Below are positions 1,385-58,684 of a DNA stretch of 64,000 nucleotides, piece after piece. The DNA lies in contig CAJINV010000016.1 in the NCBI GenBank assembly GCA_905178155.1, positions 372,001 to 436,000 on the forward strand, given 5' to 3'. The notes beneath the pieces are model-generated. The model saw only the letters and a list, made by a program, of their open reading frames with translations. It ran no database searches and was not told the DNA's origin. Both the position numbers and the translations under genes were made by a program. Each line of letters begins with the position of its first letter. Position 1 is the stretch's first letter. The DNA comes from Amoebophrya sp. A120 (lineage: Eukaryota > Protista > Dinoflagellata).

Positions 1385-4300
1385 TCAGTGCGTATCAACT
1401 CCAAAAATGTCTGGGTCTGGAAGATTGCCACGTTTGTCATGCAGGTTTTCTATGGCCCATAAAGTTTAGAATGCAGCACCTAGCATGACAAATTCTGTGA
1501 GATCTCTATCATGCCTATCATGCATGAGAAATTGCCTCTCAACTTGGTAAAAAAGGGCGGCTGTTGGTAATCACGCAACACAGATTTTTTGCACGATTCA
1601 GATTTAGCATGACAAGTTGCAACCTTCCAGACCCAGACATATTTGCATTTCATAGTGCGTCACGTTTTCCACCGTTAAGCTCCCCTTTCCGTCCACACTG
1701 AACATGAGGTCAATGTGGTGGTGCGATGTTTCTTCGATAGAGACGGTGGTGAGAGGCGTCCCGTCGGCGGCCACCACTTCAATGTTGAAGGAACCTGATA
1801 TACAATATTTTCTAGGTAGGTGAGGTTCACCATAGTCTCGATCCACGCAACATCACACCAGTGAAGACCTTGTGATGGGCCGCCGTCGTCCATGCAAAAA
1901 TTCAACGATTCGGAATAAGTATAATCAGGTGATGTTCTTTGTCATGCAACAAACATGAAATGCAGCTATGGTACCTGGTGCGCATGCGAAGCTCTCCTTC
2001 TGGCTGACGGGCACCGGAACGCCCTTGTGCAAAACTGGGAAAAATGACTTTGCGTTCCCCTTCTTCACGGAAATGCCGACGGCTTGAGACAGAGCGCTAC
2101 CCTCCATGGCGATACCTGTTCCGTAGAAGTTGTATGGTGGTAGTTTTATTATTTTGATGTCACATCTTTAGAAAATTTGTCATGCGAAAGTCACATTGAC
2201 ATTGCCAGCATGTCAAGCGAAATTCACATCGCAAGCATGTTTTGTCTTGCATAAAAGTCCCTGCTCTACAATAATTGTCCGAAAATTTACCTGGCGTATC
2301 GTCGTCGTCGGCTGGCTCGACATTTCCTTTCAGCTCTGCAGAAACCACCAACTCCCCCTCGTCCGTTGCTCCCATGTTGAGCAATACGTCCGCTTGTATT
2401 GCCGCGCCCATCGCGACCACCTCCTCGGCAAGCAAATCGGTCTCGCCCTTGAGCTATCAAATGCAAAAGTGTCTGGTGTTTTGTCTGGAAACAAGACCTT
2501 GGTACAGCACGGGGAAGAGAACGACTTGAACTTTTTGAAGAAAGAAAAGAAAAGAGAACTACGTGGATGCACTATGTAGAGAGAGATTAAAACATGCTAT
2601 TATGTCCACCGGTGGAACTAACTACTGCTACTTATACCGGGTCTGGAGCAAAGCACCTTGTCATGCTAAATCTGAATCATGTGAAAATCTGTGTTGCATG
2701 ATTACCAAAAGCTGTCCACTTTTGACCTAGTCGAGAGGTGGTTTCTCATGCAGGATAGGCATGATAGAACTCTCACAGAATCTGTCATGCTATGTCCTAC
2801 ATACCAGATCTCATGTGTCATGGAAAACCTGCATGACATGTCTGGCACTCTTCCAGACCCAGACACTTTTGCAGTTGATATGAGCTCCTTCGCTTTGCTG
2901 GCGCTGAAGGCCTCGGCAATCGTTTGGCTCACAACGGGGATGTTGCACCCGCCCCCGATGCACAAATACTCGTTGATCTTTGTTGAGGACGAAGTTGTAC
3001 TTGCGGCGACCTTCTCTTGCACTTCCTCGAGCATCTCCTTCAGTTGGTCAATAACGTTCTTCTCCTCGTCTTCCTTCTTCAGCATCTCCTCAAATTGCTC
3101 CCTGGTCACTTGTATGCATTGCAAATATCGATCTGGGGCTGGAATAAACTTGTGATGCGGAACGCGAAAGATTGGAACTGCGCTTGTGGGTGCAGACAAG
3201 CATGATAAGTTCTGAGAACGGCTGCTCGTCATGCGTATCCCGCATGACAAGCTGCGCTTTCGCATGACAAGAGAGTTCTCACCGCGTCTGTTGATGTCGG
3301 TCATGCAATGCAGATTTTCCACGACACACCCATGCAAGATAAGCATTGTAAGTTCAACCTTTCGAGACCCAGAAGATCGATATATTTGCAATGCATAACT
3401 TGCGTGAAGAAGTCCACATCGCCCAGCAATGCTTCCACCTCAATGGTGGCCCGCTTCGACACCGTGAGGGCCTTCTTCGCCTTTTCACAGGCTTCCTTGA
3501 GTCGCAGCATCGCTCGCTCCTCCTTCTTCAGCTGCAGGGCCGCCTTCGGGTCTTTCCTCTTCAAATCCTTGACGCAGTAGTCAAAGAGCGTTTCGTCCAT
3601 CAGCTTGCAGCATCAACTGCAAATATGTCTGGGTCTGGAAGAATGAAAGTTTGTCATGCAGCTTGCCTCGCGTGACTCTTGAATCTGTCATGCATGAGCA
3701 GGAAAGCAGCAGTCTCTTACTTGTCATGCAAAAACGGAGTTTGTCATGCGGGAAGCGAAACACATAGGAGCTCAGAAACTTGTCATGCGTGGCTGCGTAA
3801 GAACGCAGTGCGCCCACCGTGCACAAACTAGCATCACAAGTTGTTTCCAGACCCAGACATATTTGCAGTTCATATGCAGCCGAGGGACCCGGACCCCACC
3901 GAGGTCACCGGTCGGAAAATGCCGGAGTTTTATCCTGTGCAAAAGTATCGCACTCGTAGTAATTGCAGTCATGCAGTACAAATCTCTCTCTTAAGGCAAA
4001 TCAGCATTACAAATTTTATTTTTCATGCTGAGGAGATTTGAAATGCATTTATACGAGTACGATACTTCTTTTGCAATTCATAAGTTTTTGTTCACCGTGA
4101 AAACCGAGCAATCGATATCCTGAGGAAAAACGTCCCCACCCTCCAATACTTGTCATGCAAATCCGCAAGCCTAGAATGTCTCTCATGTGTAGCCCTATGA
4201 GAGCCATTAGCTAAAAATGCTATCTGGGAGTTTGTCATGCTAGAATCCGAATCAGCTAGTCAATTCGTCATGCGGTTATTTCACTAGGTAAACAGGATTA

Positions 4301-7063
4301 CACTGCGAGCCAGAACTTGTCATGCTCGACAGCCAAAACTTGTGGATGTGTGTAGCAGATTCCCCATCTTGACTATGAGGCGAGCAGGACGGTTTTACAT
4401 AGGATAATCGAAGGTAGACGCGCCGAGATCCACAACGGCCACTATCCTGAGTAAAAACGTCCCCACGACCCCATAGTTGTCATGCAGATGTGCGACTACA
4501 GGAAGATTTGTAATGCGCATCTCCATGAGAGGCATTTTCAATCGCGTTTTGGGATTTGTAATGCTGTAAACGGGATGAGCAGATGGATTTGTGATGCCGC
4601 TGCACTGGCTAAACTGCACTACACTACGGACTGCAACTTGTGATGCGTGACTCCCAAAACTCCTAGGTTTGTGTTGCAAAATCCCCATCCCGACTCTCAT
4701 GTGGGGACGTTTTTGAACGGGATAGCGACGGTTTTTTCCTCATCCTTGACCGCCGCCAGACCGTTCCCGCCCGCCGTTGCGGCTGATCCTTGCTGTGCTG
4801 CCTGTATCCTGGGGAAATAAGACGTCCCCAGTAGCTGCATCGTCCCACATTTTTTGTAGATGCAAATTATAATATCCATGAGAAGCAATTTCGCAGTCAT
4901 GCTCGTGGTCGAATTTTTTGTCGTGTTCGTGTAAAATACTATCAGGAGAAAAAAATCGGTTTGATGTGATGAAGATGCGCCTGCACTAGCGAAACACGAT
5001 CAAAATACTCTCCGAGTCCAAGCGGCTTGAATGACCACTCGAAGAGTATTTTTTGACAGGCTTCATTTTGCCTGGCAGTGCTCCCGTACTAGTTCTTCGT
5101 CTTGAAGACTTTATGACTATGACTACTGGGGAGGACCACCACGTGGTCGTTTTTTTTACGCGGGATAGAAGCTGCTCCACTCACGCTGCTGACATTGGGT
5201 GCTGCCATGCCCGGAATCAAGCGGTGGGCGAGGTAGGCCGGGGTGACGTCCAAGCCGTGGGCGATGAGCGCTGCGCACGGTTCCTTCAGTAGTCGCATCA
5301 CCTTCAACTGCGTCGCGCTGTTCTCGTGGCCCCAGTTCGGGCAGGACTCGCAGCAGGCCTTGAGCAACTCCGCCTTCTCGTCCGAATAGTGGGATGGCAC
5401 GGTCAAGACGCAGTGCGTGACTTTATGGAAGTGTCAGGATCGAAATCGTCAAAGTTGAAATAGTTTGTAAAAAGCGACTCTATTGCAGGGGATGCAAGGA
5501 AGGCGGATTATAGTCCAGGTAAGGGTCAAGTATTGGGCTGCTGACTAGCATGGCAGAAGGCAGCGCTTTTGCTCTAAACCGCATGACAGATTCGCTTCTA
5601 GGACGGGGAAAATTTGTCATGCGCCGACTACAAACTGTGGGTCTAACTGGCAACGATTTTGCGCATCACAAATTTTTCGACTTTGTCAATTTCGATTCTG
5701 ACACTTCCTTAGACTTCCTCCCCGAGGTACAGGCTCGCGGTCTCCCGGACTTTGGCGAAGTATGAACTGTAAAAGTATCGCACTCTATGTATTGCAATCA
5801 TGCATTACAACTCTTTTTCTTAAAATAAATCAGCATTACAAATTTTCTTTCTCATGCTGAGGAAATTTGTAATGCATTTATACGAGTACGATACTTTTCC
5901 CCAGGATACGAAGACGAGAGAGGCGATGTCTTCGAGGGGAACCGACGCCTCTTCCCACGCGAATTTGATGGCACAGGATTTGCTGGAAGAGGAGGCCTCG
6001 ACGATCTGGGTTTTTGAAAAATGTGGAGACGTACACGTAGGTATTTATAATCAAAATGGCTTTTATTGATGATGTAGTCGTGCAGTCATGATTCTGTATA
6101 AAGAAATACATCCATTCTGTGGTGGCGTTCAAGTTGGTCCAGCACCTCTACTTGCATGCAAGCCAAGAAGTACTAGACAAGTTCAAGAGGTGTCACGATC
6201 ATGCCGAATAAAGCGGAGAAGCTGCAATGGCTCACATTTAATAGTACTTACCTCAAGATGCTTCAACGCTTTGCTTTCTGCGATGTCTTCTTGGGTAATC
6301 TCGTCGTCGAACGGCTGGCCCAGCAGCTTCTTGAAGTCCCGCACCGTACCTTTGTTTGTTGTTGTTCCACCGTGTAAGTAAAAAACGTAGTTGTGCTTGC
6401 GCTGGCGCTTGATAGATGACAAGACATGGAGATCATGCAGCAAGGAAGATTTAACGTGGAGAGGATAACATGTGTCTGTATCTATCCCCACGACCACCTG
6501 GTCAACATGCAACGATGCAAAAATTCATCATCAAATCACGATGATGAGGTTTAGTTCTTCTGCAGCTACACAATATATTTATAGCTAGTACCTGGTAAAT
6601 TTCTCTCCTTCTGATTGTAAGCCGCATCCCCGACGGTGATTGTGCTACTGCCATCCGCTGCTTTGACGTAAGAAACGCAGACGTTTGTGCTTCGGTTTCC
6701 CATTTCGTTGGGGATCACTTCCTATCAAATGTAAAAATGTCTGGGTCTGGAAGAATGGAAGGCTTGTCATGCTTGTCTGGCATAACCCATGATGCTTCTA
6801 ATGGATGACCCAGCATCACAGATTTTTGGAAAGCTTCCTGATGCCATTTCCGCATGACACATGCCCTCCTCGCGTAGCACAAATGTGGCTCCTCTTGTTG
6901 GTCATGCAATACAGATTTTTTTAGAGTCCAAAGTTAGCATCACAAGTTCCAACTTTCCAGACCCAGACATTTTTACATTTGATACTTCCGTCTGACCGTT
7001 CTTCGACATGGCCACGACGCACGTGGTCGCGCCAAAATCGATACCGATACCGTAAGTCGACAT
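1385..7063 (-). CDS. atypical Hsp70-family protein (HSPA14/Ssz1-like), ~585 aa, 16 exons
   Basis: Spliced motifs GIGIDFGAT, VLTVP..LLKEPCAALIAHGLD, VVDLGASTFD, NSGIFR, RLKEACEKAKKAL, EEVVAMGAAIQA; short C-terminus without lid/EEVD. 11 introners plus GT-AG introns 1795-1974, 2116-2290, 6006-6251, 6350-6591; spliced length 1758 nt. Hsp70 family is secure, HSPA14 subfamily is by recalled similarity. Confidence 0.85.
1393..1654. mobile_element. introner family A
   Basis: TIR TATCAA..AAAATGTCTGGGTCTGGAAG; direct repeat gtgcg/gtgcg. Confidence 0.9.
2455..2880. mobile_element. introner family A with ~160-bp internal insertion
   Basis: Family A TIRs; direct repeat tgagc/tgagc. Confidence 0.85.
3113..3397. 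mobile_element. introner family A (diverged)
   Basis: Diverged family A TIRs; direct repeat acttg/acttg; removal joins FFTQV-TREQFEE. Confidence 0.9.
3611..3874. mobile_element. introner family A
   Basis: Family A TIRs (left end CATC); direct repeat tgcag/tgcag. Confidence 0.9.
3931..4082. mobile_element. introner family B
   Basis: TIR TATCCTGTGCAAAAGTATCG.ACTCGTA; direct repeat agttt/agttt. Confidence 0.9.
4116..4406. mobile_element. introner family C (diverged)
   Basis: TIR TATCCTGAG.AAAAACGTCC; direct repeat atcga/atcga. Confidence 0.85.
4443..4724. mobile_element. introner family C
   Basis: Family C TIRs; direct repeat gccac/gcgac. Confidence 0.9.
4805..5167. mobile_element. highly degenerate introner (C-like ends)
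   Basis: Residual TIR TATCCTGGGGAAATAAGACG / CGTTTTTTTTACGCGGGATA; direct repeat lost, but removing element plus 5 nt restores the Hsp70 frame. Confidence 0.6.
5424..5711. mobile_element. introner family I (singleton)
   Basis: ~37-bp TIR TATGGAAGTGTCAGGATCGAAAT; direct repeat gactt/gactt. Confidence 0.9.
5761..5908. mobile_element. introner family B
   Basis: Family B TIRs; direct repeat cgaag/cgaag. Confidence 0.9.
6723..6984. mobile_element. introner family A
   Basis: Near-perfect TIR TATCAAATGTAAAAATGTCTGGGTCTGGAA; direct repeat cttcc/cttcc. Confidence 0.95.
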
Positions 7064-7382
7064 TTTTGTCCAGTACTGAAATAAGTAATCGCTACAACTT
7101 GGGACGAAAGCCACAAAAAAATTCACTGGCGTAGCGCTTTTGCTGCAGCTGCAAGATGAATAAATACAGTTTGAATAAATGCAAGGGTTCGCTATGTTGT
7201 ACCAAAAATCGATGTTAGTTTATTCTCCGCAGCTGAATAAACGAAATTGTACGTGTTCTTAGTGGCCGCGTGCAAATGACGATCGAACGGGAAAAAGTAG
7301 GTGTAGTAAGTGGTGAATTTATAGCTAAAAAAAGAAACTTCGTCCTCTCCTGCGAAGTTTCAAGCACCTACGTGAGCCTGTT

Positions 7383-7901
7383 TTAATGTGGTTGATCGGA
7401 AAATTCAGAGATGAAGTTCTTTGCCACTGCAAATGCCTCGACGGCCATGCGTGCAAACAAATTTCTTAATGCTGTACTCACAGAAAGCTGAAAGATCCTA
7501 CGCTGGCTTCGCTTTCTTCCGAATCCGAAAAAAGATCCTCCTCCAGTTGTAAAAGATCCATCCAAGCGCAAATTCCTTGCAATAATTCTTGTTCCAAAGA
7601 TATCATGATCATAACCGCGCGGAAGATCTACTACGTTTTGAACTTCAGGATTATTTTTGTCGCTTTCTTTGATCTTTTTCCACTTCAAGTTTACATTTAC
7701 TTGTCGTCTACTGCATCTTTCTTGCAGTTTATTGCACCAAGAACTCAAGACTGAACAACCTCGCACACCAGATCGATTTTCATTTGAGTTTTTCGTTTTG
7801 CTCCTCGCGCGAAAAGATACTGCAGCTTCGTATACTTTTGAAAAATCACAACTGTTGTACTTACAACTTATGGGGTTCGGACGATGAGAGTGTTTGTTCA
7901 A
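7383..7901 (-). CDS. hypothetical ORF or exon, 172 codons
   Basis: Long open frame in AT-rich DNA on the gene strand; non-ATG start, no recognised motif. Confidence 0.3.
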   Translation of the reverse strand: MNKHSHRPNPISCKYNSCDFSKVYEAAVSFRARSKTKNSNENRSGVRGCSVLSSWCNKLQERCSRRQVNVNLKWKKIKESDKNNPEVQNVVDLPRGYDHDIFGTRIIARNLRLDGSFTTGGGSFFGFGRKRSQRRIFQLSVSTALRNLFARMAVEAFAVAKNFISEFSDQPH

Positions 7902-8368
7902 GTAGGTAGTGCTGGGGATCGCCTGTTACAAAAAACTACAGCAATTCAAATAATTCCTAAATAGGAAACAAGTTCCTAAGCGATGGACTGGTCTTCATTT
8001 CCTGTAGTCATGCGACGGAAGTTGTACTTGATGCAGGAAAAAATTTCTCTCTACAGGCTCTTGAGCGCAATCAACCTCTATGTATTCATCCTAGGTGCAG
8101 AGTCATTCACATAATGAAAAGCAAACTCGAGAAAACCGAAAAAATAAGGGCATCGAAATACGGGTCGGGGTGCGGGAGGGAGAGACAACGCAGTCAGGCG
8201 GACCTACTTTCATGATCCCGGCTCCACCTATAGTGGGTCCTTTTAGTTTTACATGCATGGAGCAGGTACTGCTACACGCCTAACTTTTAAAAATGAAACA
8301 AAATGCCTCATCTTCTTCTATACCGGATTGGGAATAGCGAGTCAAAAGAACAAGTAAAGCAGTTGAGA

Positions 8369-9818
8369 TCAGTAAAACCCCCCTTTTCCCATGCCCTGCC
8401 CTTTCCCGGACTTGCCGATGGTTTGCGCATACATTCCCATCTGGCGCTGCGCTCTATCCTGTGCAAAAGTATCGCACTCGTATAATTGCAATCATGCATT
8501 ACAAATTCTTTTTTTTAGGTAAATCCGCATTACAAATTTTATTTCTCATGCTGAGGGAGTTTGTCATGCATTTATACGAGCACGATACTTTTGCAGTTCA
8601 TACGCTCGCGTCTGAGCAGATTCCGGGCCTTGGTTCAGCACGTGTGCCTATGTATTGGAAATATGTCTGGGTCTGGGTGGAAAGTTGTATTAATGCCAAA
8701 AGTGAATGATTGATATGCGCACGCGCACGGCAATGCGCAGCCACGCATGACAAATTTTTTGGACTGCTATGTGATTCGTTTTGCGCATGACAGACTGCGT
8801 TTTTGCATGACAGACAAGAGGCCCTTATTTACATTTTCCACCTCCCCTCGCATTTTTCCAGAGTTTGGTTTCGCAGTCAAAGTCATGTGAGACAAGCATG
8901 ACAAACTTCTTGCACTCTTCCAGACCCAGACCTTCGATATTTGCATTTGATAATGCCCGGGAGTGCTTCGCCACCGTGGCCTGGTTTCGTGCGCTCGCCC
9001 GAACCATCGCGTTTTGCAGCTGTCCCATCGCGTTATTAATGTCGCTGGTGCCCTTGCTGTGGGTGACGCCCTTGGTGTACTGAATGTTTGCGGCAGCCTA
9101 TGGAGAGAAAAAAGTTTGTCACAGACACAGTCACAGTCACTATCTTGGAGGGTTTGCATTACAAATTTTCTCAGCATCACAAACTTTCCTTGTATTGCAG
9201 AAACACTAGGGAAATCCCTAATGAAGTTTGGCTTTGATGCATTTTTACGCATGACAAACAATTTTGTATTGCAAGAATGCGCATGAGTGATCGTGACGAA
9301 CTTTTTTTCTTTGATACTGCCTGCTCCAGCGCCAGGTCCCGCGTGATTTGTTCCCGCTGCAGGTGAATGTCGCGCGTCATCTCGTGGTAGCCACCCCACG
9401 ACCTCCGTTTGCGCTTCTCCTTTACATCTGCGTGGTGCTCGTCCCAGCGTCGGGCGTTCTCTATACCCTCGTGGTTGTACCGGGCCCACGCCTCGCGGTC
9501 CCGGTGCTGTTGCTTCTTTTTGTACAGAACCACGGCAACCACCACGCCGGCGAGTACCAGGAAAAGCAAAACATAGAACAGCACGTTATGGTCCGTGTTG
9601 CTGAATTGGAGCAACCGCTGCAGAAATTGCTCTTCCAAAGGGGTGGTTCTGGTTATCGAGTTCAATATGATTTCATCGTGTACTCCTGGAGACTTGTTTT
9701 CATAGACCCGGACCGCAGGCAATGCGTCGCTATAGTGGATGTCCACAAGCTGCTTAATAGTCGCAGAAGCTTCTTGCAGCGGAGAGGAGCTGCTGCCACG
9801 ATTGTCAAGCATTTGCAT
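8369..9818 (-). CDS. hypothetical single-pass membrane protein, ~254 aa
   Basis: TM segment VLFYVLLFLVLAGVVVAVVLY followed by KKK; three introners removed give 765 nt ending GKSGKGQGMGKGGFY*. Confidence 0.75.
8455..8602. mobile_element. introner family B
   Basis: Family B TIRs; direct repeat cgctc/cgctc. Confidence 0.9.
8649..8952. mobile_element. introner family A
   Basis: Family A TIRs; direct repeat gtgcc/atgcc. Confidence 0.85.
9099..9316. mobile_element. introner family J (singleton)
   Basis: TIR TATGGAGAGAAAAAAGTTTGTCAC / GTGACGAACTTTTTTTCTTTGATA; direct repeat cagcc/ctgcc. Confidence 0.85.
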
Positions 9819-11280: not shown

Positions 11281-14200
11281 TCAGTAAAACCCATCCCGTC
11301 CAGCTTGGTGAAGTTCCCGTTGCTGGTTGTAAATGTGCTCCACTCGGTCATAGCTCATGGGCGGGCGCACGACTATCCCAGAGAAAAAAGCTGGCAGGGG
11401 ATATTTGTAATGCAAAAATAAATAGACAGAAAAACTTGCCATGGGCGGCCCCCTAGCATGCACATGCTGCTTCGGATATGCAATGCAGATTTTTATTTTG
11501 TGTATTTATTTTTGCATTACAAATATGAGCTGGCAGCTTTTTTCTCTGGGATAACGACGCCCGTCTGCGCACTGGCGTCCGCCTCTCGTTTCGCAGCTAT
11601 CGCAAGAAAAAAGTGTTTCACTGTGAACTTGTGATGCATAGAATGGAACAGCACAGAACTATTTGTCTTGCTACACCTGCAAGACCTTGACTCTTTAGGG
11701 GTGTTTTCCCTTTGGAAGCGCGCATGGCAAATTTTCTGTGTCATGTGTAACAAACTTGTGATGCAGATCTTTCAGAGTCATTACAGTGAAACAGTTTTTT
11801 CGTGGGATAGCAGCCCGCATCACGTCAATCTGCGGCCCCCCGTGCGCCTGAAAGGCGCCCCGGAGCGACCACCCCCCGCCCCCGCCGCGCATCGAACTGG
11901 TGTTGTGGAGGATGTGGTCGTTCGCATTGGAGTATCCACAGGAAAAATCCCCCCACCTCTCACATCAAAAACGAAATTTGTGCTGCTGTATTTGAGTAAA
12001 CACAAATCGACTTTTAAGTATTGCCAGAAGGCCAAGAGACGCAGTTGCTCCCTCCTTTGCAGGCAATTTGTCATGCTGTTTTCCATTTCCATTCGGATTT
12101 GCCTCCGCCTCCTGTCGTGCTGAAGACGCACGGCTTTCCTACGCCACCCAGCACTACAGTCCGCTTCTTTTGCCACCTTCTAGCATGACAGCATGACTTG
12201 TGGTCTCAAATCATGCTACACAAATCTCCGCTTTAGTATGGGGAGGGGGGAATTTTCCTTTTGATATGGAGGTGCCGGCCTCCCATATGGATTGCAAAAG
12301 TATCGTACTCGTATAAATGCATTACAAATTTCTTCAGCATGAGAAATAAAATTTGTAATGCTGATTTGCCTTGATAAAGAAATTTGTAATGCAAGACCTG
12401 CATTTATACGAGTACGATACTTTTGCACAGGATATCCCAGTCGTGGTACCGATCTTCAAAGCCGTAGTGCCCGCGGCCTTCCAGTATCCTGAGTAAAAAC
12501 GTACCCACACCAGAGTCAATTTGGGGTTTTGCAACACAAACCTAGGACTTTTTGGAGTCACGCATGACAAGTTGCACTCCGTAGTGTAGTGCAGGGTAGC
12601 AAGTGCAGCTGCATCACAGATCCATCTGCTTATCCTGTTCATGGCATCACAAATTCCAAAACACGACTGAAAATGTGTACCGTGTGTATGCGCATCACAA
12701 ATGTCCTTGTCATTGCAAATCTGCATGACAACTCTGGGGTGGGAACGTTTTTCCTCAGGATATCCAGGCGCGCGTTAGCCTTGTCTTGCATCTTATCAAA
12801 TGTAAAAATCCCTGGATGTCTGGAAACTTGTGATGTTGCGTGGCGTCTCATGATGAGGCCACAAGTGCTGGCTCAGCATGACAAGTTTCTGAGCTTCTAG
12901 GCGTTGCCTATGCTGCATGACAAACTGCGTTTCTGCACCACAGAAGGGTGGGGCTCTTGGTTAACGTGCATGACAAATTTAAGAGTCATGCCAGACAAGC
13001 ATGACAAACATGCATTCTTCCAGACCCAGACATTTTTGCATTGGATACATCTTGTCCACTTGCCGCTGCGGTTTCTTCTTCGCCCGGGGTGTCCAACTGG
13101 CAATGTTGGTGTCCTCGTAGTAGTGCTCCCCGTGATCGCCGTGGTGCGTCACGGTTTGAAAGGTCGAAGTGGTCACCTGCCCTCCGCCCTTGCCGTGTTT
13201 GTTCAGCACCGCGTTTTTCTTTTGTTGCACGCGCTCCGAGCGCGGCGTCGCAGTTGCTCCACCGTGGTTGCTGTACCCAGCAGCTCCGGGGTAGGAACGG
13301 GTAGATGACATTTCGGAGGAAATCGAGCGGCTTGAGTGGGGAGTAGAGTCGTACCCGTGATGATCGCTGTACCCGGAGTGATGCGAATGGTGCCCGCTGT
13401 GATTGTGCGAATAGTCAGAGTGGTAGCCCTCGTGATCATCGTATTCTTCGTCCCATTCACCATCATGATCGTGGTAGCCGTAGCCTTCGTGCTCGTCATA
13501 ATGAGAATGTTCATCGTAATAGGAAGATTCGTCGCCATGGTGCGAGTGGTCTCCGTAGTGCGAATCTTCCCCGTAGTTGTGGTGGTCACTGTAGTGCGAT
13601 CCGTGGTCCGACCACCCTTCTTCGTAATGGCCGTGCTCGCCTCCGCCGTGGTGGTGGTTATGGCGTTCGCAAACGTTACATTCTCAACTGTTACATGGAT
13701 TTGTAATGCAAGAACAGCAACAGTGAAAGTGGCAATATTGCAGCTTTCGCATCACAGATTTTCCACAGATCATGATGCGGCTTAGCCCTTCGAAAATTTG
13801 TCATGCTAAGCACCTTGATCAAGTGGAGGCTGATGGCAGTTTTGCATGACAAATCCGTGTAACAGTTGAGAATGTAACAGTTGAGAACGCCATAGTGGTA
13901 GTGCTGGTCGTGATAGTTGCCCGCTTCGCCCTCAGCCGAAACGGTCTTATTGATCCGGCTTGTTTTATATGAACTGCAAAAGTATCGTACTCGTATAAAT
14001 GCATCACAAATTTCCTCAGCATGAAAAATGAAATTTGTAATGCGGATTTAGCTTAATGTAATGCATGATTGCAATACGAGTACGATACTTTTGCACAGGA
14101 TATTTTACGGGGTGTTTGCAGTTGCACCTCCGCCATCTCGAGGGCAACGTCATTGGCAGCGCTCATCGTCCTATGCATTGCAAAAATGCCTGGGTCTGGA

Positions 14201-16109: not shown

Positions 16110-19100
16110 TCACACGATATGATCGTCTCCTTCGTGCCGGTTACTATTAGTTCCTTGATTTTCATCCGTGATCTCTCCTCTCCCCCCACCAGGCCGTCCA
16201 TCTGAACCTGATTGCACGGAGCGATTGGAAGTGCTGCTGCCCACCACCTCCTCCCGATGTTCTTCGCCGCTGTTCTTCAATATCGGAAAAATTGTCCTGG
16301 AGGCCCCGCCCCGCCGAGGGTAGTTGCTACTGGTTCTCCTCGTCGTGTGACGTGGTTGTGCCGTTGGGTCATAGATTTTTTCCTGCTGCTGCTCACCTGC
16401 ATTAGGAGCAGAACTTCCAGCAGGATCTTCAACTACATCTCCGCGTTCGCTTCTTCTATTTCCAGCCGCTAGTGGTGCACCAGTTCTTTCCACAACACCC
16501 CCAGGGGCCGACGTACTGTTCATGTTCTGCTCAAGATCATCATCATCTTCATCATGATCCCCAAGTTGTACTAAAGCGCTGGCAGCACCTGCTCCCGCCG
16601 CGGGCGAATTCTCCATTGGAATCGGTGACAGCAACCCGAAGAGAACAGAGCGGTCCTGATGACGGTCCTGCGGATCATTCTTGAACAGGATTCCCGATTC
16701 CTGTCCAAACACCAAGTCATCTTCTTCTTGTGAGCTGTCGTTCTTTTCGTGTTCTTTTGGTTGACGGCCAGGAACGAGCGCTGCAGCGGAAGTAGATCCT
16801 CTTCGTGCAACATCTTTTTTATCTCCGCTTGATGATGTTCGTGTTCCCCTCACGTCTTCTAGCTGGATCCCGCTTTGGTCTTGATCGTGCGGCGTTCCTA
16901 TGTGAAAGAACCTCTTCGCGGCGGCCATCGGGGGCGACCTGGACCGGATGTACTTTTTCCTGTTGTCATCTTCAACAACGCTTATGCTTCGCTGTTCTCC
17001 TTTGTGCCGGTCGGCGGGAGCAGGTGCAGTCTGGATATGAACTGCAAAAGTATCGCACTCGTATAAATGCATTTTTCTCCGCATGAGAAATACAATTTGC
17101 CATGCTGATTCACTTTAAGTAATGCAAGAATTGCATTTAGATTTATACGAGTACGATACTTTTGCACAGGATACTGGAAGACATCACGCAGCGAAGGGAA
17201 GAAAGAATCGTCATCGTCAAGATCATCGACGTAGTCGTGGTGGTTCCATGGTGGCTTATTCATTTCCATCCGTTGTTGAAGGTCGTTACTTCGTCTTTGT
17301 TGTGCTCGTGGTCTATTGGAGACGTAGTTTTTCCTGGTCTGCTCCTCCGCCTCCTGGTAAAAGCGAAACGAGGAACTACTGCTGCTCGCGTATCAAAAGA
17401 AAAAATCCCCCCTCCCCATATCGAAAACGAAATTTGTGATGCTGTATTTGAGTACACAAGGCCTTACAGCATTACAAATCGCCTGCATGACGTCCCGGAC
17501 AGCCTGCACTTGCCTTGTTGCAAGACAGACGCGATGTGTGATCACAAATCTGCATCGCAAATTTTCAGATGGACGCGCTTGCAATATGGGGAGGAGAGAT
17601 TTTTCCTCACAATATCGCGGCACCACCGCCGCCTGGTGGCGCCCCGGGGTTTGTTTGCGCCTTTTGGTTTGTTATTTCGCTGTCAAGATGAACATCACCC
17701 TCGTTCAATATTTCTTCTTCTTCCTCATTCGAAGCGGAGGTCTGCCGGCTTTTCTCCGCCCGACTCATCGCCGTCCGTCGGCCGATGCTCAGTCCGCGCA
17801 CTTTCGTTTGCTCTTGTTGTGCAGCTGCAGCTGTGCCATCACTCGTGACTGTAGGTAGATTACGATCAGAAGGCCCACGCAGAATGCCTAGCCGCTCCTT
17901 GTCTCCATCCGCGGATATGATCGAGGCCTTCGAAATTTCGGTTCCACGCGGATCGTCTACACTGCTCTATCAAATGTAAAAATGTCTGGGTCTGGAAGAA
18001 TGCAACTTGTGATGCTGCATCCATTTGGATTCCAAAAAAAATCTGTATTGCATGAGTACCAAAGGGAATGCATTTTTTGCTACCTTCGTATCGTATCGCT
18101 TTGACCTTTGACTCCTGTCAGGGCGGCGTTAGAACAGATTTAGCCTCTGCCAATACCGTGGCGTTAGAACAGATTTAGCCTCTGCCAATACCCCTAGGTG
18201 GACACACGTTCCACGTCCTACCTTGAGAAGGCATTTGTCATGCGGAATAGGCATCAAGAAGCCCTCAAAAATCTGTATTGCTAGTGTATGCATCACCGAC
18301 ATCATGGCTCATGCAAAACGTGCATGACAAGTGTCAGAATCTACTTCCAGAGGACCCAGACACTTTATTTACAGTTGATATGCTAGCTCCGCGGCTAGCA
18401 ACACTAGGACCATTATCTCTTCTTAAAAGACTACCGCTGCTCCCCTCTCGTCCTGCTCTGTTTAGGACTTTCTTGTTGTTTCCGTTTAATATTTTTGCAC
18501 CCGCGGACGAGGTCTCATAATTCCTAAAAATCCTGCCATCTTCTGCACCGACGTCCAGCACTTCTCCTTCGTCCCCACGGTCGTCCGCTTTCTGCTGTGC
18601 TGCGGCTCCCGCGTCTTTCGTTTGCGCTTGATATATCGCGAGGAAAAATCCCCCCTCCCCATCTTGGAAGCATGTCCTTCCGAAAATTTGTGATGCAGAT
18701 TTGTGATCCTGTCTGTCTTGCCAGAAGGCAAACCCAGAGAGTCCGCCACGATATGCCGGCGGTTTGTAATGCTGCAAGGCCTACAACAGGGTAGACGTCT
18801 GCCATGCTAGACCTCTACACCAAAAGGCCTCCCCTGAGGCTTGCGATCTGCGCGCAATGCTTTCCTGCAAGACAAATGTGATTTGTGTACACAAATCCCG
18901 CATCACAGATTTCCTTTTTGATATGGGGAGGGGTGATTTTTCATTTTGATATGGTAGTTCTTTTTCTTACTTTCCAACGCCCGCATGGACAGTTGCTTCC
19001 GAGATGAACTTTTCGTGCTCAGAGAGTTCTTGTTTTGCGTGTTCTGTTGAGAGCGCTCGTTTCTACTACTTCCCTGCTTGTTCGAGGACGAGGTCGCTGT

Positions 19101-22100
19101 TCCACCAGCAGCGGGTGCACCACGACCGGAGGTGTCACTCATCGGCTCAGACAACGTACTGGTGATGCCGCCAGAGGAATTTGAATTGTAGCCCTGAATT
19201 TCAATGTCCGAGAGGTGGCCATGCTCGATGAAGTCCATGTCATCCTTGTGCGTGTCAGCGGGCATCAGGTATTGCAAGGAAAAATGCCCCCACCCCCAAA
19301 GATGCAATAACTTGTGATGCGAAGAAGTTTCCAAATGAAAACTTTTTGTCATGCATAAAAGGACTATGAGTCTTTCTGATGCAGAGTCTAGAGGTATATT
19401 ACATCGCTTGCATGACAAGCACCGCTCTTGCAGCTGGGATTTTTTGCAATACTGATTTTTGCTATTCACAATTGAAAATCTGTGATGCTGATAGATGCAA
19501 GAGGGCGAGTGTTTCATTTGGAAAGGTTTGCATATACAGATAATCCCAAGTTCTGGGGCGGGCAGGGCATTTTTCATTGTAATATCAGGGTGACAATGTT
19601 CGTGACAAAATTGGACATAAGCTGTTGGAAGACCCCGCCCGGGTCCTCCGTGAGCACTCCGAGGGAATCCGGGTCCCGCACGATGTTAATATTTCTTGTC
19701 GCGGCAATCATCAGCAGAATGCCGAACAGGAGAAACACCAGCGCCAAGACGATCATCCGGTCCTCCCGCCGCTCGTTTACCTCTTCGTAGTCCACTATCC
19801 AGCAAAAAGGATTGTAGGCGTAGCTTTCAATTTGTGATGCGCAACATGCAACATAATTGCGTCTGTCATGCTGGTCAACATCCATAAATGTAGAGCCCAG
19901 CATTCCAGCGCGTTTTCACGTACAAGCTGCGCATGACAGGTTTATTTTGCAGTCATGCCAAACAGATTTGTGTATCAATGCTGTTCCGCCAAAAAAGGTA
20001 GTACACCTACATAATATCTTTTTTTTCTTGGATATCCGCGACCTTGTGGCTACCGTCGTACAAGGTGTGCGTCAGCCAGGTATCCCACGAAAAAAGTGTT
20101 ACAGTTACACATTTGTAAGTCAATTCAGCAACACAAATTCCTGAGAGAGAAAACTTGCAATGCAGAAACTCTAAGGGAAAACACCTATGAAACGAAGCTC
20201 GTTGCTTATCCGGCATGACAGAACGCGTCTGTCTTGCATGGCTTGCAACACAATGTGCAACTGTAACACTTTTTTCTTCCCATACCAGGCGCCGCTGCTC
20301 CACTGGTGAAAGAACCACCGGCTGGCGTCGACCGGCCGTATCCTGTGCAAAAGTATTATCGTACTCGTATTGCAGTCATGCATTTTTTTTTTCTCAATGG
20401 AAATCCGCATTACAAATTTTATCTCTCATGCTGAGGGAATTTGTCATGCATTTATACGAGTACGATACTTTTGCAGTTCATAGGCCGCCACCGGTACCGA
20501 AACGCCTGGTTCTCCGGATTCACCGTGGTTTGTCTCCCGAGGGACTCCAGCATCTGCAGGGCGTTCTTCTCCAACTTTTCGAAGATCGCCTGATCGTTTT
20601 TCACAGCGGAGTTCATATCACTCGCAGCGCCGCCGCTCGCCACGTCCGCGTTTCTCTCCTCAAAGAGCCGATTCGCCATGTCCAGAATGGAGGACATGTG
20701 CCGCGCGAGATACACGCTCGCGTGCTCCTTAACCTTCACTGGGCTACTTGCAGAGGACAGTGATGTTGTTGATGAAGCTGCTTTCTTCATGCTTTCTCTA
20801 TCGTACGCGTTCTTGTATTCGAAGTTTTGATCATTTTCGTCGAATCTGCGCCACCCGGTGCAAAAAACGAAGTCGTCAATCTGCAGGACTGGTTCCGTTT
20901 GCAGTTGGTAGAGTCCACTGTGTTGCCCCTGGCCGGTGCTTGGTTCACCTCGCGCACCAGCTGCCCCACCGGTGGAAGTAGATTTTGTCCCTCCTTGTCC
21001 TGCTCTCGCACGAACCCCAGGAGCTGCCCGTTGCCCACTCGTCCTCCCATCGTAGTAGTCATGTTCTGGGCAGATCCAGCTGGTCCAGTCCTTAATCGCT
21101 TCCTGGTTGAATTTTTGCGGCTTTTTCAGAGCCACCTTCCGCAGGTACTCAATTTGCGCCGTGAACTTGTCGAGCGCGAGACTCTTCTATGACAGTGCAC
21201 AACTCCCCCTCCCCCTCATTTGTCATGCAAAGCAATACAAGTGAGGGGGAGGGGGAGTTGTGCACTTTCATATCTTCACCTCGGCGGACAGAAGCGAGAA
21301 CGCAAAGGTGATCTGCTCCAGGTCGTCCTGCAAAATCGAAGCCACGCTGCTCTCGCGGCTTCTCAACGGGTAAATGTCGGGCTCAGGCGCGGGCACGCGG
21401 GCCCCGAGTTGTTCGGAATTCTGTTCTTCCATGCCGGCAGAAAAGCCGGGCGGCGGTTGTGCGACGTTGTAGCTCCCCACCGCTTTTTCTTGCAGGAACG
21501 AGCTCGCTGCTGCTCCTGCTTGCCCTCCTGCTGCTCCCTCCTGCTCCTGCAGGAGTAGTTCCTGAATGTGGGCGCGCCCGATTTTGGCTCGGAGATTTGG
21601 ATACCGCAGCGCGTCGGGGTTCCAGGGAAGGTCATCGCTCGCCACGATCTGGGTCTGCACGGGCGCGAAGAATTTCACCAAGACCTCCGGCATCGATCGG
21701 GCTCGCACCGTCGCGTCCCGCGGCCAGGAGGGAAGCCACCGGGGGAACATTTGCACGACGTCCGGCCCCAAGTCCACGGACGCAAGCAGTGCGGAGTAGA
21801 GTGCGAGCTCCTCGTTCAATTTTGCCCGCAGTTCGTACAGCAATGCTCGTCTGCGCTGCTGTTGCTGCAGAAACGCGAATTTCTTGCAGACGTGGCTCAG
21901 TTGCTCGGGATTGAACTGCTGGGCGCGAAGCAGTATGGCGTTCTCAAATGTTAAATTCTCAGCTGTTACATGATTTGTCATGCAAAAATACATATCAGAA
22001 TCGACGCGATCAAGCTGCTTCGCATGACAGATTCTCGAAGAGCCAAAGAAGGCTGAGACTCTGTGCCAAATCTGTCATGCAAGACGCGCAAGGGCGCCCC

Positions 22101-25100
22101 TTTCACTTTTCTTGCGATTCTTTTTCTTGCATCAAAAATTATCCACGTAACGGCTGATAATGTAACAGTTGAGAACGCCATAAGCAGCAGCTGCGCGTTT
22201 TGGGCGGATAAATCGCCAAGCGTCACTTTTGAAGGAGATCCTGCGCTGCTGCCGCTGTTCCCTTGGTTGTGGTCTCTAGAAGTACTATCCACACCCGCCC
22301 TAAGGCGCCGCGCGAACTCGTCAGCCTCGGTGTTCAGGAGCTTATCGCTTTGGTCCACGGCTTTTTTGGAGCTCGTCGTGTAAGAGGCTGCAGGAGATAT
22401 CGCAAGGAAAAATCCCCCCTCCCCATATTGAAGAGGTAGGTTTTCGAAAATTTGTGTTGCTGATTTGAGGTCACAAATCACGTTTGTGTTGCAAGAAGAC
22501 AAGGGCAGCAGCTTCCGTCCCATTATAGAGGCGGTTTGTCATGCTGTTGAGCCAACATCACGGACGCTTCTCATGCTAAGCGCCTAAGTCAAAGCATCTC
22601 TGCTCAGGCTTGATATGGGTCTGCAGTCCTCTCTAGCAAGACAGATGTGATTTGTGTACTCAAATACAGCAACACAAATTCCGCTTTCGATATGGAGGTG
22701 GGATTTTTCCTCACAATAGGAGAAGTACCACTACTACTACTACCCCAGCCACGGCAGGCATTTGAAAAGCGTAGAGTAGAGACCCACTCCTGCTGCGAAT
22801 ACAGAAACTCCTTCACCGCGGGATCAGCAGCCGCTTCTCCGAGTTGCTGCAACGGAACGTCGTAGGCATGTTCCAGAAAAACTTTTTTGATGAACAACCG
22901 GACCACCTCGTTCATGCTATTCGTGATTGCCAGGGAGAACAGATTCATGTACTGGATGCGATCCGCGAATTTCCGGAGCCGCACGTTCTGGTGCCTCCGG
23001 AGAAACTCCGTGACATCGGGTAACACCCCTCTCCGCTGGTCCCACAGGATCAATCTCACCTCGAAAAACCCGCACACTTGGTCCACCAACTCATTCAAAT
23101 CGTCCACCGTGGTAAAGCTTTTCGAAGTGTCCCCGCAGAGGGGGCAAAACCGCTTCCCGCTCTTGAAATTCCCCCGCAGAAACGTCGTTTCCCACTTTGT
23201 CGCCCAGTCCTGGCACGCGTTCATGGTCTTCCGCCGGTAGTGCCGCGTGCCCCGGATGTGCTGGCCGCCCACGAACACAATCCGTTTCACGCCGCGGACC
23301 TCATGGTGAAAGCGGTCGTATTCCGCCTTGTCTATCTTTTCACCGGTTGTACTCGTTGTGCCCGTCACCGGAGCGTCCTCATTTTGCAGCCCTGCTCTGC
23401 CTACCTCCGACGCCGACAAGTGCGCTTCGTGCCTCTCGGAGTCGTAAAAAAGATTGTCCGCTAACGGCTCCTCGTAGGGATTATGATCCTCGTACACATC
23501 GTGGTCGTAGCTGTCGTCTAATGTCCTCTGCGACGGAGCGTTTTGCGCGCCGCCGCCGGGATGGAGCTGCGCGCTCGCTACGACCTGCTGCGCCACAGGC
23601 CTGTCCGTTGGTCTGAAGTCTCTCAAGTCTTGGTGAACGCGATCGTTCGTAGAGGCGGAAGATTGTTTCATATTCCTGTTCCTTGGACCTCGTCCGATGT
23701 CAGCAGCATTGTCCTGTTCCCCACTCGTCATCTCCTCCGTTTGCAGCATCTATCCAAGAAAAAAACTGTGTTAGTGTAACTTTCCTTGGCTGGCAGCATC
23801 ACAAATTTGCTCTACATGACAGAGAAAACCTATCATGCATGGTTTGTATGGGAAAACACACATGAAAGGAGGACTTCATGGCTGTCTGGCATGACAGGTG
23901 TAACTCTGTTGCATCTTGTCTTCTGCAACACAAATTTACACTTACACAGTTTTTTTCTTGCATAGCATCTTCGAGATCTTCAACACCTTCGAACTCATCT
24001 CCGCTGCCCACATTATCACAATGAAAAATCCCCCCGCATCAAAACGAAATCTCGGATGCTGGATTTGCGTACACGCATCAGATCTGTCTTGCAGTAGAGG
24101 ACCGCAGGCCCATATCGTGCCCATGTAGAGAGGTTCTGGCCTAGGCACTTGGCATGAGGGACGCGTATGCTGTAGGCCGAACAGCATGGCAAACCGCCTG
24201 TATACTGGGGCGGAACCTATGCCGTTGCTTTCTTGCAAGACAGACGCGATTTGTGGTAACAAATCAGCATGACAAATTCTCTGAGGCGTGCCTTTTCGAT
24301 ATGGGGAGGGGGGATTTTTCCTTTTGATACACATCGCTTTTTCTTCTTCCGACGCGTACATGTCTTCGCGATCCAGGTAATCGGTTTCGGTTTCCTCCTT
24401 CAGACTCTCGTCGCACTTTTCGCACATGTCCATGTTGTGGTCGCACCCGGGTCGCCCGAAATTATCCCCGCAGTAGGTGACCTCGATCCCGTATGAATTG
24501 CAAAAGTACTATCCTACTCGTATAAATGCATTACAAATTTCTCAGCATGAGAGTAATGCTGATTTACCTATAAGAAAAAGATTTGTAGTGCATGATTGCA
24601 AGAATACGAGTACGATACTTTTGCCCAGGATATCCCGGACTGGACGTGCAGTGACCGGAACTGCTTCTGGCCCATGCTGCTCGAGTCGGACTCCGAGAGC
24701 TTCTCTAGGGTCAAAGCGATCAGTTCTACGGCGGAGACGCGCACGATGTCCAGTTTCTTACTGTCAATATCAAATGCAAATACTTATGTCTGGGTCTGGA
24801 AACTTGTGATGCTAGCTCGACAATCTTGAGGCCGTCCCAATTGGTGGCCACGCATGACAAGTTCTTGAGCTGCTAGGTGTTGCCTGTTCTGCATGGCAAA
24901 CTGCGTTTCCGCATGACAGAAATCTGGGATGCTTGCCGAACACGCATGACAGACTTGAGAGTCATGCTGGTCACGCATGACAAACTCTGCATTCTTCCAG
25001 ACCCAGACATATTTGCACTTGATAGTCAAATTGGTCGTACAAGTCCTTCGCGTTGATTTTTTTCGGCTGGCGTTTCAAGTCTTTGCAGTTCGGAAGGGAG

Positions 25101-28100
25101 GATGAAAGATCCGAGGAACTACTAATACCACTTGCACCTCCGCCGGCTGACGAACCAGGGAAGTAGGAGTTTTGTCCACCGGTATTAAGTAGACCTCCGT
25201 CATTTCTGTCGCTCGCGGCTCTCCCGCCGGGATTCGCGAAGTTATTGTAGTCAACCGACTCAGGGTCGTCCGCTGCCTGCATGTCCCGAATTCCCTGAAG
25301 GGTCTATGATTTGCAAATATGTCTGGGTCTGGAAGGATGCAAGGTTTTTGGTCATGCATATTCTGCATGATCCATGATGCCTGTAACGCATCACCCAGCA
25401 TCACAGATTTTTTTCGGGCTTGCTGTTGCCTGTTCCGCATGACAAACGCGGCCCTCTCCGCGTAGCACAGACTGGTCTCCTCTTGCTGGTCATGCATTGA
25501 AAATTTCTATTGGCATCTGCATCCAAAGACAGCATCACAAGTTGCAATCTTCTAGACCCAGACATATTTGCAGTTGATACGCTCGCGTAGCCCGCGATTT
25601 CCCCCCGGCAATTCAGACCGTCCGAGTACAGGTCCTCCTCCTCGGGAACCCACCCAAACAGATTGGGAATGTCCTTGCCCGGGAAGAAAAACGCCACGTC
25701 TGCCTGCATGCCCTCGCGAGCCGCGTCCGTCATGAAGTTCATGTAGTGCGTTTCCCAGTGCCCGATGTTGTACAAATCCACCAGGCCAAACCAGCGCATT
25801 GTGAGGAAACATCCCCCCTCCCCATATCCAAGACGAAACTTGTGTTGCTGGATTTGAGTACACAAGTCGACTTGTATTGCTAGAAGGCCAAGAAGCGCAG
25901 TTGCTCTTACTTATTTCGTTTGCAGGCAATTTGCCGTGCTGTTTCATCCCGCTTCCAGTTGCTTTCTGTCATGCTAAAGGCGCAAGGCTTTCCTACGCCA
26001 GCCAGCACTACAACAGTGTGTACATCGATCTCTACTTCCCTTCTAGCATGACAGCGTGATTTGTTATCCCAAGTCATGCTACACAAATTTCCCTTTGAGT
26101 ATGGGGACGAGGGGGGATTTTTCATTTTGATACAGCGGATGGGCAGTTCCCAGGTGCGGAGGTCCGCCACTGTGAAGTCGGTATCCTCGCCCTGCAGATA
26201 TGCAGTGCAAAAGTATCGTACTCGTATAAATGCATTACAAACTTCCTCAGCATGAGAAATAACATTTGTAGTGCGGATTTACCTCAAGAAAAAGATTTGT
26301 AATGCATGATTGCAATACGAGTACGATACTTTTGCACAGGATAGCAGGTTCGTGATCTTGATGTTTGCCTCATCGGCGGGGGAGACTGGCGGGTACTCTT
26401 CCGCCAGCGTTGCGGAACGAAGTAGTGTAGAAGACGCCCCGCTGGTTCCCGTGTTCTCTTGATTCCCAAAAAAATTCAGCGAGCCGTCGCAGCCGCCCTC
26501 GGGGAGGAATACCATCTTGGCGGCTTCCGGTTGCGCTTCGTTCATGTTCCAAGTGAAGACACCGACCGCCTGCGGGCCCGGCCGCCAGAGGATGGTGAAC
26601 CGCTCCTCCTCGCTGGTGTCGGCAAAGGCGGCGGTCATGCGACTCGCCGTTCGGCTCTGTTGCGCGAGCGTGTAGGTATCCTGTGCAAAAGTATCGTAGT
26701 CGTAGTAATCGCAACCATGCATTACAAGTTCTTTTCTCAAGTTAAATCCGCATTACAAATTCTATTTCTCATGCTGAGGAAATTTGTATTGCAATTCATA
26801 CTAGTACGATGCTTTTGCATTTCATAGTAGGGGAGCTTTAGCAAAACTGGCACCGACATGCCCGCTCCGAGGATCTGGTCCACCCGGTACCCGCTGCTGG
26901 TTAATGTATCCAGTGCATATGTGTCTGGGTCTGGAAGACTTGGGGAGTTTGTCATGCAAATTGCACATGGCTCCCATTGCATCTGATGCATGCTCTAGCA
27001 TCACAGGTTTGCTCATGCCTAAAGTGCATGAGAAATGCTCTCTCCGGGTGGCAATAGTCTGAGTGTCTTTTGCCTCTCTTGCAACACAGATTTTTGTGTG
27101 ATCGACAGCTAGCATCACAAGTCCCATTCTTTTTCTTTCCAGACCCAGACATATCTGCATTTGATATAATGAAGCCCAGAGCAACAGGTCCGCTTCGATC
27201 GACTGGCTTGTCAAAATGATCACCGCCGCGCAGTGCCCCACCCGGCGCTTGTCGTCCGCCGCGGCGGACCGGAAATTCGCCGCCGATGTACTTATCCTGA
27301 GTAAAAACGTCCCCACCCCATAGTCAAGTTGGGAATCTAGCAACACAAATCTCTAAGCTTTCGGAGCAGTGCATGACAAGTTTCCCTCTGCAGTGTAGTG
27401 CTGGTTGGCAAGGGAAGCTGCATGAGAAAGCCGTCTTCTCATCGTGTTTACGGCATTACAAATTTTCAAATACGATTGAAAATGCCTGTCATGGGGATGC
27501 GCATCAAAAATGTTCCTGTCGTGGCAAATCTGCATGACAACTCTGGGGTGGGGACGTTTTTCCTCAGGATAGTACTATCCGTTTGGTTTGCGGAAGAAGT
27601 CGCCGCGTCGCCTGTTCGTATCACAAGAAAAAAGTGTATACTTACCGTAACACATGTGTTGTAACTGCAGCAACACAAATTTACTCTGTGTGGCTGCACA
27701 GAAAACTTGCAATGCAGAGATCCTAAGGGAAAACGCGTACGAAATCGAAATGAAGTTCGCAAGCAATTCTTGCATGACAACGGTTGTGTGTCTTGCGGCT
27801 CCTGCAACACAATGTGTAACTGTAACACTTTTTTCTCACGATAGTTTGTTCTCTCTGATTGCTATGCGACGAAGCGTCATCGTAGGCCGAGCCGTAGTGC
27901 CCCGCCAAGTTGTAGTTTTGCAGCAGCCTCTTCAGCTCCCGAAGCGGGTCCGGGTGAAAAGACAAGGACGCGGACAGTGGCGGATCAAATTCCAGTGTGT
28001 TCCGCTCTCGCATCTCCCGATCATTGTAGGGAAACACACAGGCTTTTCCGACAAATTCATCCCGCACGTTGGAAGAAGATTCTAAAACTTCCGCATTGGC

Positions 28101-58159: not shown

Positions 58160-58684
58160 TTTTGTGGTGTACGTCTCGAATGACAAATAAGCTCTACTTT
58201 CTAATTTTATTTAAGCGCTCAGCGACTAGTCTTGTTTAGTACGCAAAGACAAGAAGGTGCTTTGCGCAAATAAGCATGTTGTTCTTGTTGTTTTTTATTT
58301 CACACGCTCGTAATTAAGTAATTCGCACTCACATGTCCAACATGGTGCACCAGAACTCTGAGCAGTTCGTTGTACTTGTTGTACTCACTCGTTCATCATC
58401 TTCTACACTTTCACATCAGAGCTCACTCCAAGTCTGTAAAGCAGAAGCGAAACCCTTCTTCTTGCGCTTGAAAGTTACAAGAAGAACAAGGACATCGTCA
58501 CTGTGGCTCGTGCTCGTCTTCCTATTTCTCTTCATAAATCAGAGACAAAGTGGTGCCAGAAAAAAACAAGCATAAGAACTGGTAGTGGTCGCGCAAATTA
58601 TGCCTGATACACTGTGAGCAATGAGGAAACATCAAGGCATGCAGATCATCTTCATCTCGAAGTTCATCTACTATTAATTTCGAC

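Follow-up and report, generated by a model that had tools for sequence, protein, structure and literature searches.

Introners of Amoebophrya sp. A120 are removed from RNA in both orientations, probably by a fixed cut

The introners of Amoebophrya sp. A120 (Farhat et al. 2021, PMC7789003) are about 250 nt long, with TAT + 7 nt + AAA ends, short direct repeats, non-canonical borders and a predicted hairpin, and the elements described here share all of these features. The accessible text of that paper gives the borders as variable or unknown and the repeats as 3–5 nt, and contains no mention of element orientation. In contrast, in the 64-kb stretch of DNA analysed here (hereinafter, the window) the duplication is 5 nt, the cut is apparently fixed at 1 + 4 nt, and both orientations are spliced. 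Figures and subscription papers aside, no statement on orientation or on a fixed cut for A120 introners was found in the accessible text of PMC7789003, PMC12130899, PMC9860276, PMC11453091, PMC8469720 and PMC13326754. The genome-wide pipeline of PMC12130899, as its accessible part describes it, kept only same-orientation family members; the same part reports an ORF-bearing A120 family with terminal inverted repeats (TIRs) and similarity to Copia/Gypsy.

The ILEs of Polarella glacialis and Aureococcus anophagefferens likewise have TIRs and target duplications and serve as introns in either orientation (accessible part of 10.1101/2020.10.14.339549). According to that part, however, they carry or co-opt GT/GC/GA and AG sites, use particular target bases and show an orientation bias, whereas the elements here lack GT-AG, have no target preference and show no clear bias. 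The nonconventional introns of Euglena, a lineage unrelated to Amoebophrya, resemble the present elements in their paired terminal triplets, their inner stem, their short 5' and longer 3' spacers, and their suspected MITE origin (PMC12501133, in part). Their triplets are CAG/CTG, their spacers 3 and 5–6 nt, and their exons start with a purine, whereas the elements here have UAU/AUR, spacers of 1 and 4 nt and no exon preference. Fritillaria borealis also has abundant TIR-derived, non-GT/AG introns. It keeps U1 (accessible part of 10.1101/2025.08.15.670264), and its end dinucleotides fall into preferred classes, AG-AN (PMC7789003, in part), unlike the N-U and any-pair ends found here. The elements are already published, and two-way introners have precedent in other algae.

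Elements, families and host genes

The window contains 65 short TIR elements with ends TAT...ATA and a 5-nt target-site duplication (TSD); they are named by their start positions in the window. The catalogue draws on a search for TAT...ATA segments that have inverted ends and lie between direct repeats (73 rows, 16 of them loose or overlapping and left out) and on an end-profile scan whose profile came from 58 seed elements. The invariance of the end triplets partly follows from how the catalogue was built; a scan without the TAT requirement recovered 55 of 64 elements and gained one (5424–5711). The catalogue is also partly selected on the flanking duplication, and its independent confirmation is the RNA joints. 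Unpaired end-like sites at 63328, 63598, 31227 and 62372 have no partner in the window and were left out. An Rfam search of the window gave no match, and no other non-canonical introns turned up in the genes checked against RNA or gene models.

The elements are 85–426 nt long (median 255, n = 65), have a median TIR stem of 33, and occupy 15.7 of the 64 kb. As published for A120 introners, each TIR starts with TAT, followed by seven looser bases and at least three As (A at positions 11–13 in 58–61 of 63 elements, depending on the end), and a short direct repeat lies at the borders. The flanking duplication matches at 5/5 bases in 51 elements, at 4/5 in 12 and worse in two. Among 1300 slid controls, 5/5 matches occur in two and 4/5 matches in 26, indicating that the element flanks are not a chance result. 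The sixth flank base matches in 15/65, the chance level, and no target-site preference was found for insertion. TIRs, a fixed-length TSD, short length and multiple copies are the features of MITEs. The region 47128–57266 (10 kb) is free of introners, and the other inter-element gaps up to 60384 are all at most 3 kb.

Fifty-eight elements group into 10 families and seven are singletons. Orientation was called on the body alone, with 20 nt stripped from each end, and all family members were then consistent. Alignment and tabulation within the window place eight of the 10 families in both orientations, as the preliminary description anticipated. The ratios of forward to reversed bodies are 8:6 (B), 5:5 (A1), 1:7 (A2), 2:3 (C), 4:2 (D1), 2:1 (F), 2:1 (G), 2:2 (H), 3:0 (D2) and 2:0 (I). 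Clear orientation bias is absent; B and A1 are near balance, and A2 gives p = 0.07.

The preliminary description had read the two orientations of family B from its end sequences. These are where it placed them: TATCCTGTGC opens the copies at 3931, 8455, 20339, 26677 and 40630, while CAGGATA closes the copies starting at 5761, 12286, 13968, 17036, 24492 and 26199. Global alignment also confirms the three pairs it had named as reversed, with scores (same/reversed) of 47/280 for 6723 and 41780, −6/302 for 4443 and 12485, and 49/181 for 24014 and 45406. The presence of B in two orientations holds by body; the inclusion of 5761 among the copies reversed relative to 3931 does not. The body of 5761 is co-oriented with 3931 and 8455 (13/13 comparisons) and only its outer tips of about 10 nt are exchanged, so that 3931 and 5761, the two B copies bounding the interval 3931–5908 to which the claim was attached, have one orientation. 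Element 5761–5908 looks as if its interior had been inverted between inner repeats. Tip types TATGCATTGC and TATGAACTGC are common to families A and B.

The hosts lie on the minus strand, as had been proposed, for 59/65 elements by RNA contigs or gene models; five of the other six (57267–60384) fall within minus-strand ORFs after in-silico removal, and the sixth is 1393. At least 59 verified elements all lie inside spliced genes. Host protein models were found by HMMER search, and two host exons are 100% identical to Amoebophrya sp. A120 models (P0001, P0003). Because the two host proteins are identical to A120 models, the elements belong to the introners already published for A120. No Pfam match was obtained for the 2948-aa host protein, for which the sole relative listed is a protein of Amoebophrya AT5.2 (27–45% identity over five stretches). 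In-silico removal of length + 5 opens minus-strand frames of 2949 and 3011 aa, while removal offsets not equal to 2 mod 3 give frames of at most 879 aa. A 14-nt exon between two introners (12267–12285) is used in RNA contigs; other exons are 26–42 nt. Nested tandem arrays (unit lengths 311, 114 and 19 bp) lie in the first intron of the ATG2-like gene (47209–51588), which is free of introners, and a gap in the model of that gene (43424–44206) holds four copies of a 132-bp tandem array.

Table 1. Introners and host genes in the window, with body orientation, limits on k (see text) and evidence
Feature	Position	Strand	Evidence
Introner A1, body reversed	2455–2880		joint 2449/2881 in X3 and X6
Introner A2, body reversed	3113–3397		joint 3107/3398
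Introner A2, body forward; RNA 3' end AUG, not AUA	3611–3874		joint 3605/3875
Introner B, body forward; TSD AGTTT	3931–4082		joint 3925/4083; fold z −6.3
Introner C, body forward	4116–4406		joint 4109/4406
Introner C, body forward; TSD mismatch, k ≤ 2	4443–4724		joint 4437/4725, both=2
Decayed singleton; TSD 1/5; no internal motif; k ≤ 1	4805–5167		joint 4799/5168, both=1, X3 and X6
Singleton introner; RNA 5' end N-UAAG, not N-UAU	5424–5711		joint 5418/5712
Introner B, body forward, end tips exchanged	5761–5908		joint 5755/5909
Introner A1, body forward	6723–6984		joint 6716/6984
Introner B, body forward	8455–8602		joint 8449/8603 in X3
Introner A2, body reversed; TSD mismatch, k ≥ 1	8649–8952		joint 8644/8954, both=4, X3 only
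Singleton; TSD mismatch, k ≤ 1	9099–9316		X3 piece starts 9317, 0 other letters; record arithmetic
Introner B, body reversed	12286–12434		joint 11932/12435, 9 letters between; fold z −8.5
Introner C, body reversed	12485–12762		joint 12479/12763
Introner B, body reversed	13968–14102		joint 13962/14103
Introner B, body reversed; no internal motif match	17036–17173		gene model and RNA record arithmetic
Introner A1, body reversed; k ≤ 4	17968–18380		X6 piece starts 18381; record arithmetic
Introner D1, body forward; k ≤ 2	18634–18951		X6 piece ends 18628
Introner H, body forward; k ≤ 3	19796–20034		gene model; record arithmetic
Introner B, body forward	20339–20482		gene model; RNA record arithmetic
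Introner D1, body reversed	24014–24329		alignment; gene model
Introner B, body reversed	24492–24632		gene model
Introner A1, body forward; k = 1 or 2	25305–25579		gene model
Introner D2; RNA 3' end AUG	25797–26132		alignment; gene model
Introner B, body reversed	26199–26343		gene model
Introner B, body forward	26677–26826		gene model
Introner I; k ≤ 3	27619–27843		gene model
Introner H, body reversed; RNA 3' end AUG; no predicted end-to-end stem	32007–32227		gene model
Singleton introner; RNA 3' end AUG	35822–36084		gene model
Introner B, body forward; k ≤ 3	40630–40779		gene model
Introner A1, body reversed	41780–42041		alignment; gene model
Introner D1, body forward	45406–45730		alignment; gene model
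Hsp70-like host gene, part bridged by RNA contigs; continues below 1973	1973–7063	-	Pfam PF00012 on two exons; contig joints
Host gene, 2948 aa, 23 introners of mixed orientation	16113–30554	-	P0001 = A120 model GSA120T00019289001
ATG2-like host gene, 3908 aa, 14 introners	31578–52301	-	model P0003

Removal from RNA and position of the cut

RNA contigs remove at least 30 elements exactly as length + 5. Specifically, at least 19 are listed joints (at least 12 in 1900–9500 and at least seven others), and 11 further elements are removed by record arithmetic with zero remainder. Both orientations are removed in five families: B (forward 3931, 5761, 8455, 20339; reversed 12286, 13968, 17036), C (forward 4116, 4443; reversed 12485), A1 (forward 6723; reversed 2455, 17968), A2 (forward 3611; four reversed copies) and D1 (forward 18634; reversed 17391). 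None of the 11 listed runs is registered as RNA; the analysis covered four of them, with the raw-read run X9 contributing three reads. Runs X3 and X6, at most two samples of one study, were presumed to be RNA, supported by their skipping of three GT-AG introns; the contigs display the majority form only. Public gene models remove 29 more elements; in all, P0001 removes 23/23 and P0003 14/14. These models are based on transcript alignments (PMC7789003, in part) and are semi-independent of the RNA contigs. Removal is shown for at least 59/65 elements, the remainder being 1393 and five elements past 57000. Repeated elements removed from transcripts with non-GT-AG borders are what has been published for A120 introners.

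The contigs of run X1, one DNA run with partly counted joints, cross element borders at a depth of 24–32, and one of them spans 4805 whole and unspliced. An X6 contig runs unspliced across 4116 (4086–4435) at a depth of 4.7, compared with 59.2 for the spliced joint, and may represent retention, precursor or DNA. The earlier proposal that introners are tolerated in both orientations is thus borne out by RNA contigs in five families, and their removal at the RNA level is nearly certain. Its second element, an end signal that reads alike on either strand, is provided by the terminal inverted repeat. In 4805 the duplication is lost (1/5), yet the element is removed as length + 5, indicating that removal is not signalled by the duplication itself.

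Where the two copies of the duplication are identical, the splice junction is hidden; a mismatch between them reveals it. We use k for how many bases of the transcript-downstream duplication copy are retained. Ten of the 14 mismatched duplications are informative; at 26199, 33177 and 41780 the protein is unchanged either way, and 57620 lies outside coverage. All ten allow k = 1, the only value common to all. RNA contigs set the limits k ≥ 1 (8649), k ≤ 1 (4805, 9099), k ≤ 2 (4443, 18634) and k ≤ 4 (17968), and gene models restrict k to 1 or 2 (25305) and to k ≤ 3 (19796, 27619, 40630). The mirror cut, k = 4, is excluded at 8/8 sites able to reveal it (p = 0.004). Four sites, of which a gene model supplies one, set the exact value k = 1; 8649 and 9099 come from a single run, and the bracketing on both sides covers no opposite-orientation pair of one family. 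On these ten mismatch sites, the cut is likely fixed, with 1 nt of the intron ahead of the 5' UAU and 4 nt of it beyond the 3' AUA (N-UAU...AUR-NNNN). A symmetric element is thus cut in a polar manner relative to the transcript. The two spacings sum to 5, the duplication length, so coding sequence would be restored at any target and in either orientation.

Published border statistics are compatible with this cut. The accessible part of PMC7789003 Table S4 has T second in 9/9 top A120 classes and A second to last in 8/9, a pattern that fits k = 1 or its mirror and to which we give little weight. In the dataset of PMC12130899, GT donors make up 26–30% of six large A120 families (21 of 58 rows available); at k = 1, GT donors are expected at 18/65 elements in the window, near that share, which could equally come from aligner preference.

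At k = 1, +2 is U and +3 is A in 65/65 elements, +4 is U in 64/65, −7 is A and −6 is U in 65/65, and −5 is A in 61 and G in four, while +1 and −4 to −1 accept any base. Position +5 is C in 38/65 and G in 23/65, and +6 is C in 25/65 and never U, to which the usual U6 pairing is a poor fit. The U12-type donor consensus is RTATCCTT; only some tips here read N-UAUCCU. Minor snRNAs are described as absent in A120 (PMC7789003, in part). U2-type borders are likewise absent, with GT-AG in 0/65 elements across host-strand registers −3 to 8, and the ends, N1-UAU...AUR-N4, do not carry the Euglena signature N3-CDG...CH'G-N5-6 with R at the exon start. The three GT-AG introns examined all start with GTA. 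Within the triplets, four elements have G instead of A at −5, in each case at the RNA 3' end (p = 0.125) and with a U-G pair retained, and one element has A instead of U at +4.

An end-to-end stem is predicted in 60/65 elements, alike in both orientation classes. With families equally weighted, pairing occurs in 98% at TIR positions 11–13 (the A and U tracts) and in about 63–66% at positions 5–7. Five of the 65 have no predicted in-register end stem, including 4805 and 8649, which are spliced in RNA contigs; in the predicted folds, the ends of 8649 and 32007 are not paired in register and those of 4805 are weakly paired. On the host strand, G-U pairs do not significantly outnumber A-C pairs (58 vs 45, p = 0.24), and that strand has the better fold in only 34/63 elements, likewise without significance. 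Selection on the stem at the RNA level is thus without support from wobble or strand-fold bias, and the ends may be regarded as a pair of sequence motifs whose complementarity reflects descent.

Internal motif and candidate machinery

A TTGTCATGC-like word has 215 of its 231 matches inside elements. A spacing of 31–33 bp recurs in 9/17 families or singletons (on average 7.1 hits per draw, against 0.9 under the null), and motifs near element ends mostly face inward (35 vs 12). The periodogram of same-direction distances peaks near 15.8, not at 10.4. Concentration, spacing and inward direction would all suit a protein that binds the double-stranded motif, marks the DNA and recruits the removal machinery during transcription. 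We consider this improbable. The cut tracks the end triplets rather than the motif, and the three motif-free elements are still removed, 4805 and 17036 in RNA contigs and 33954 in a gene model. The preliminary description had offered palindromically arranged internal motifs as a removal signal. That proposal fails on the same three elements and on family C, which carries the motif in one direction only and yet is spliced in both orientations; single-direction motifs occur in 20/65 elements in total. The motif is therefore unlikely to be the removal signal. Regularly spaced subterminal repeats are the usual binding sites of transposases, and the spacing here fits a DNA-binding role that lies more likely in mobility (putative transposase binding). 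The motif also occurs at 1939, 2177 and 2242, within the GT-AG intron 2116–2290 and a likely intron near 1939 of the Hsp70-like gene, possibly as relics of old introners.

It had also been argued that a symmetric signal must act outside the spliceosome. This does not follow, as two-way TIR introners are found in Aureococcus and Polarella (accessible part of 10.1101/2020.10.14.339549) and the cut found here is polar. A modified, U1-less spliceosome is a plausible candidate and the leading one. It is favoured because N-U-A matches the local G-U-A donor, because most spliceosome proteins are present with U1 undetected (83/89 found in A120; PMC7789003, in part), and because TIR-derived introns of tunicates are handled by an altered spliceosome (accessible part of 10.1101/2025.08.15.670264). 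The transposon-like inserts would be placed by a cut-and-paste transposase supplied in trans, and orientation independence would arise because the two ends are inverted copies, either orientation giving a pre-mRNA with UAU...AUA. The U1-less spliceosome would read N-U-A as a relaxed form of the local G-U-A donor, with the end-to-end stem replacing U1 and AG recognition. The insert and 5 nt would then be removed by the 1 + 4 cut, the 3' site being set by distance; we conjecture that the invariant A at −7 is the branch point. Short fixed branch-to-acceptor distances occur in group II introns and some protists.

Close behind ranks a separate, non-spliceosomal endonuclease-ligase that would bind the hairpin base and make the 1 + 4 cut in RNA, like the enzyme proposed for the nonconventional introns of Euglena; we regard it as possible, though less probable than the spliceosome. 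It would account for the absence of GT or AG in any register (0/65), for the long stems in both orientations, and for the use of the 14-nt exon between two elements. The Euglena rule is similarly staggered (PMC12501133), and Euglena introns leave as circles (PMC11282704; both in part). The match of N-U-A to the local G-U-A donor speaks for the spliceosome instead, as do the sole +4 exception (5424), which shifts to N-UAAG, the confinement of all four terminal exceptions to the 3' end, and the splicing of elements with weak stems. A DNA-bound mark and DNA excision fit worse than either. Excision in the expressing nucleus, as for ciliate IESs, would mean that RNA never contains the elements; TA-like ends, TIRs and orientation independence agree with it, the joints of the DNA run are only partly counted, and the DNA and RNA runs may represent different life stages. 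It is nevertheless very unlikely, given the DNA contigs that cross element borders, the unspliced contig of 4116 in an RNA run, and the duplication copy that is kept, which is the transcript-upstream one at 8/8 sites, whereas a strand-symmetric DNA cut would divide these sites (p = 0.004).

The occurrence of both orientations is in itself a modest addition, and the 1 + 4 cut rule is the part worth following. Tentatively, A120 could run a second, non-spliceosomal RNA splicing system that measures 1 and 4 nt from paired UAU/AUA. If so, its ruler would match the 5-nt footprint of the transposon, and any insertion, in either direction, would be silently repaired in mRNA. Such a system, convergent with that of Euglena, would confer universal tolerance of one transposon class. 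In Amoebophrya, more than 60% of introns are removed with neither GT-AG borders nor a detected U1. A fixed N1-UAU...AUR-N4 rule points to where a branch point or a circle junction should be sought, would allow ambiguous gene-model borders to be placed by one rule, and would explain why insertion needs no target sequence or orientation. It would thereby make the machinery of A120 introner splicing testable.
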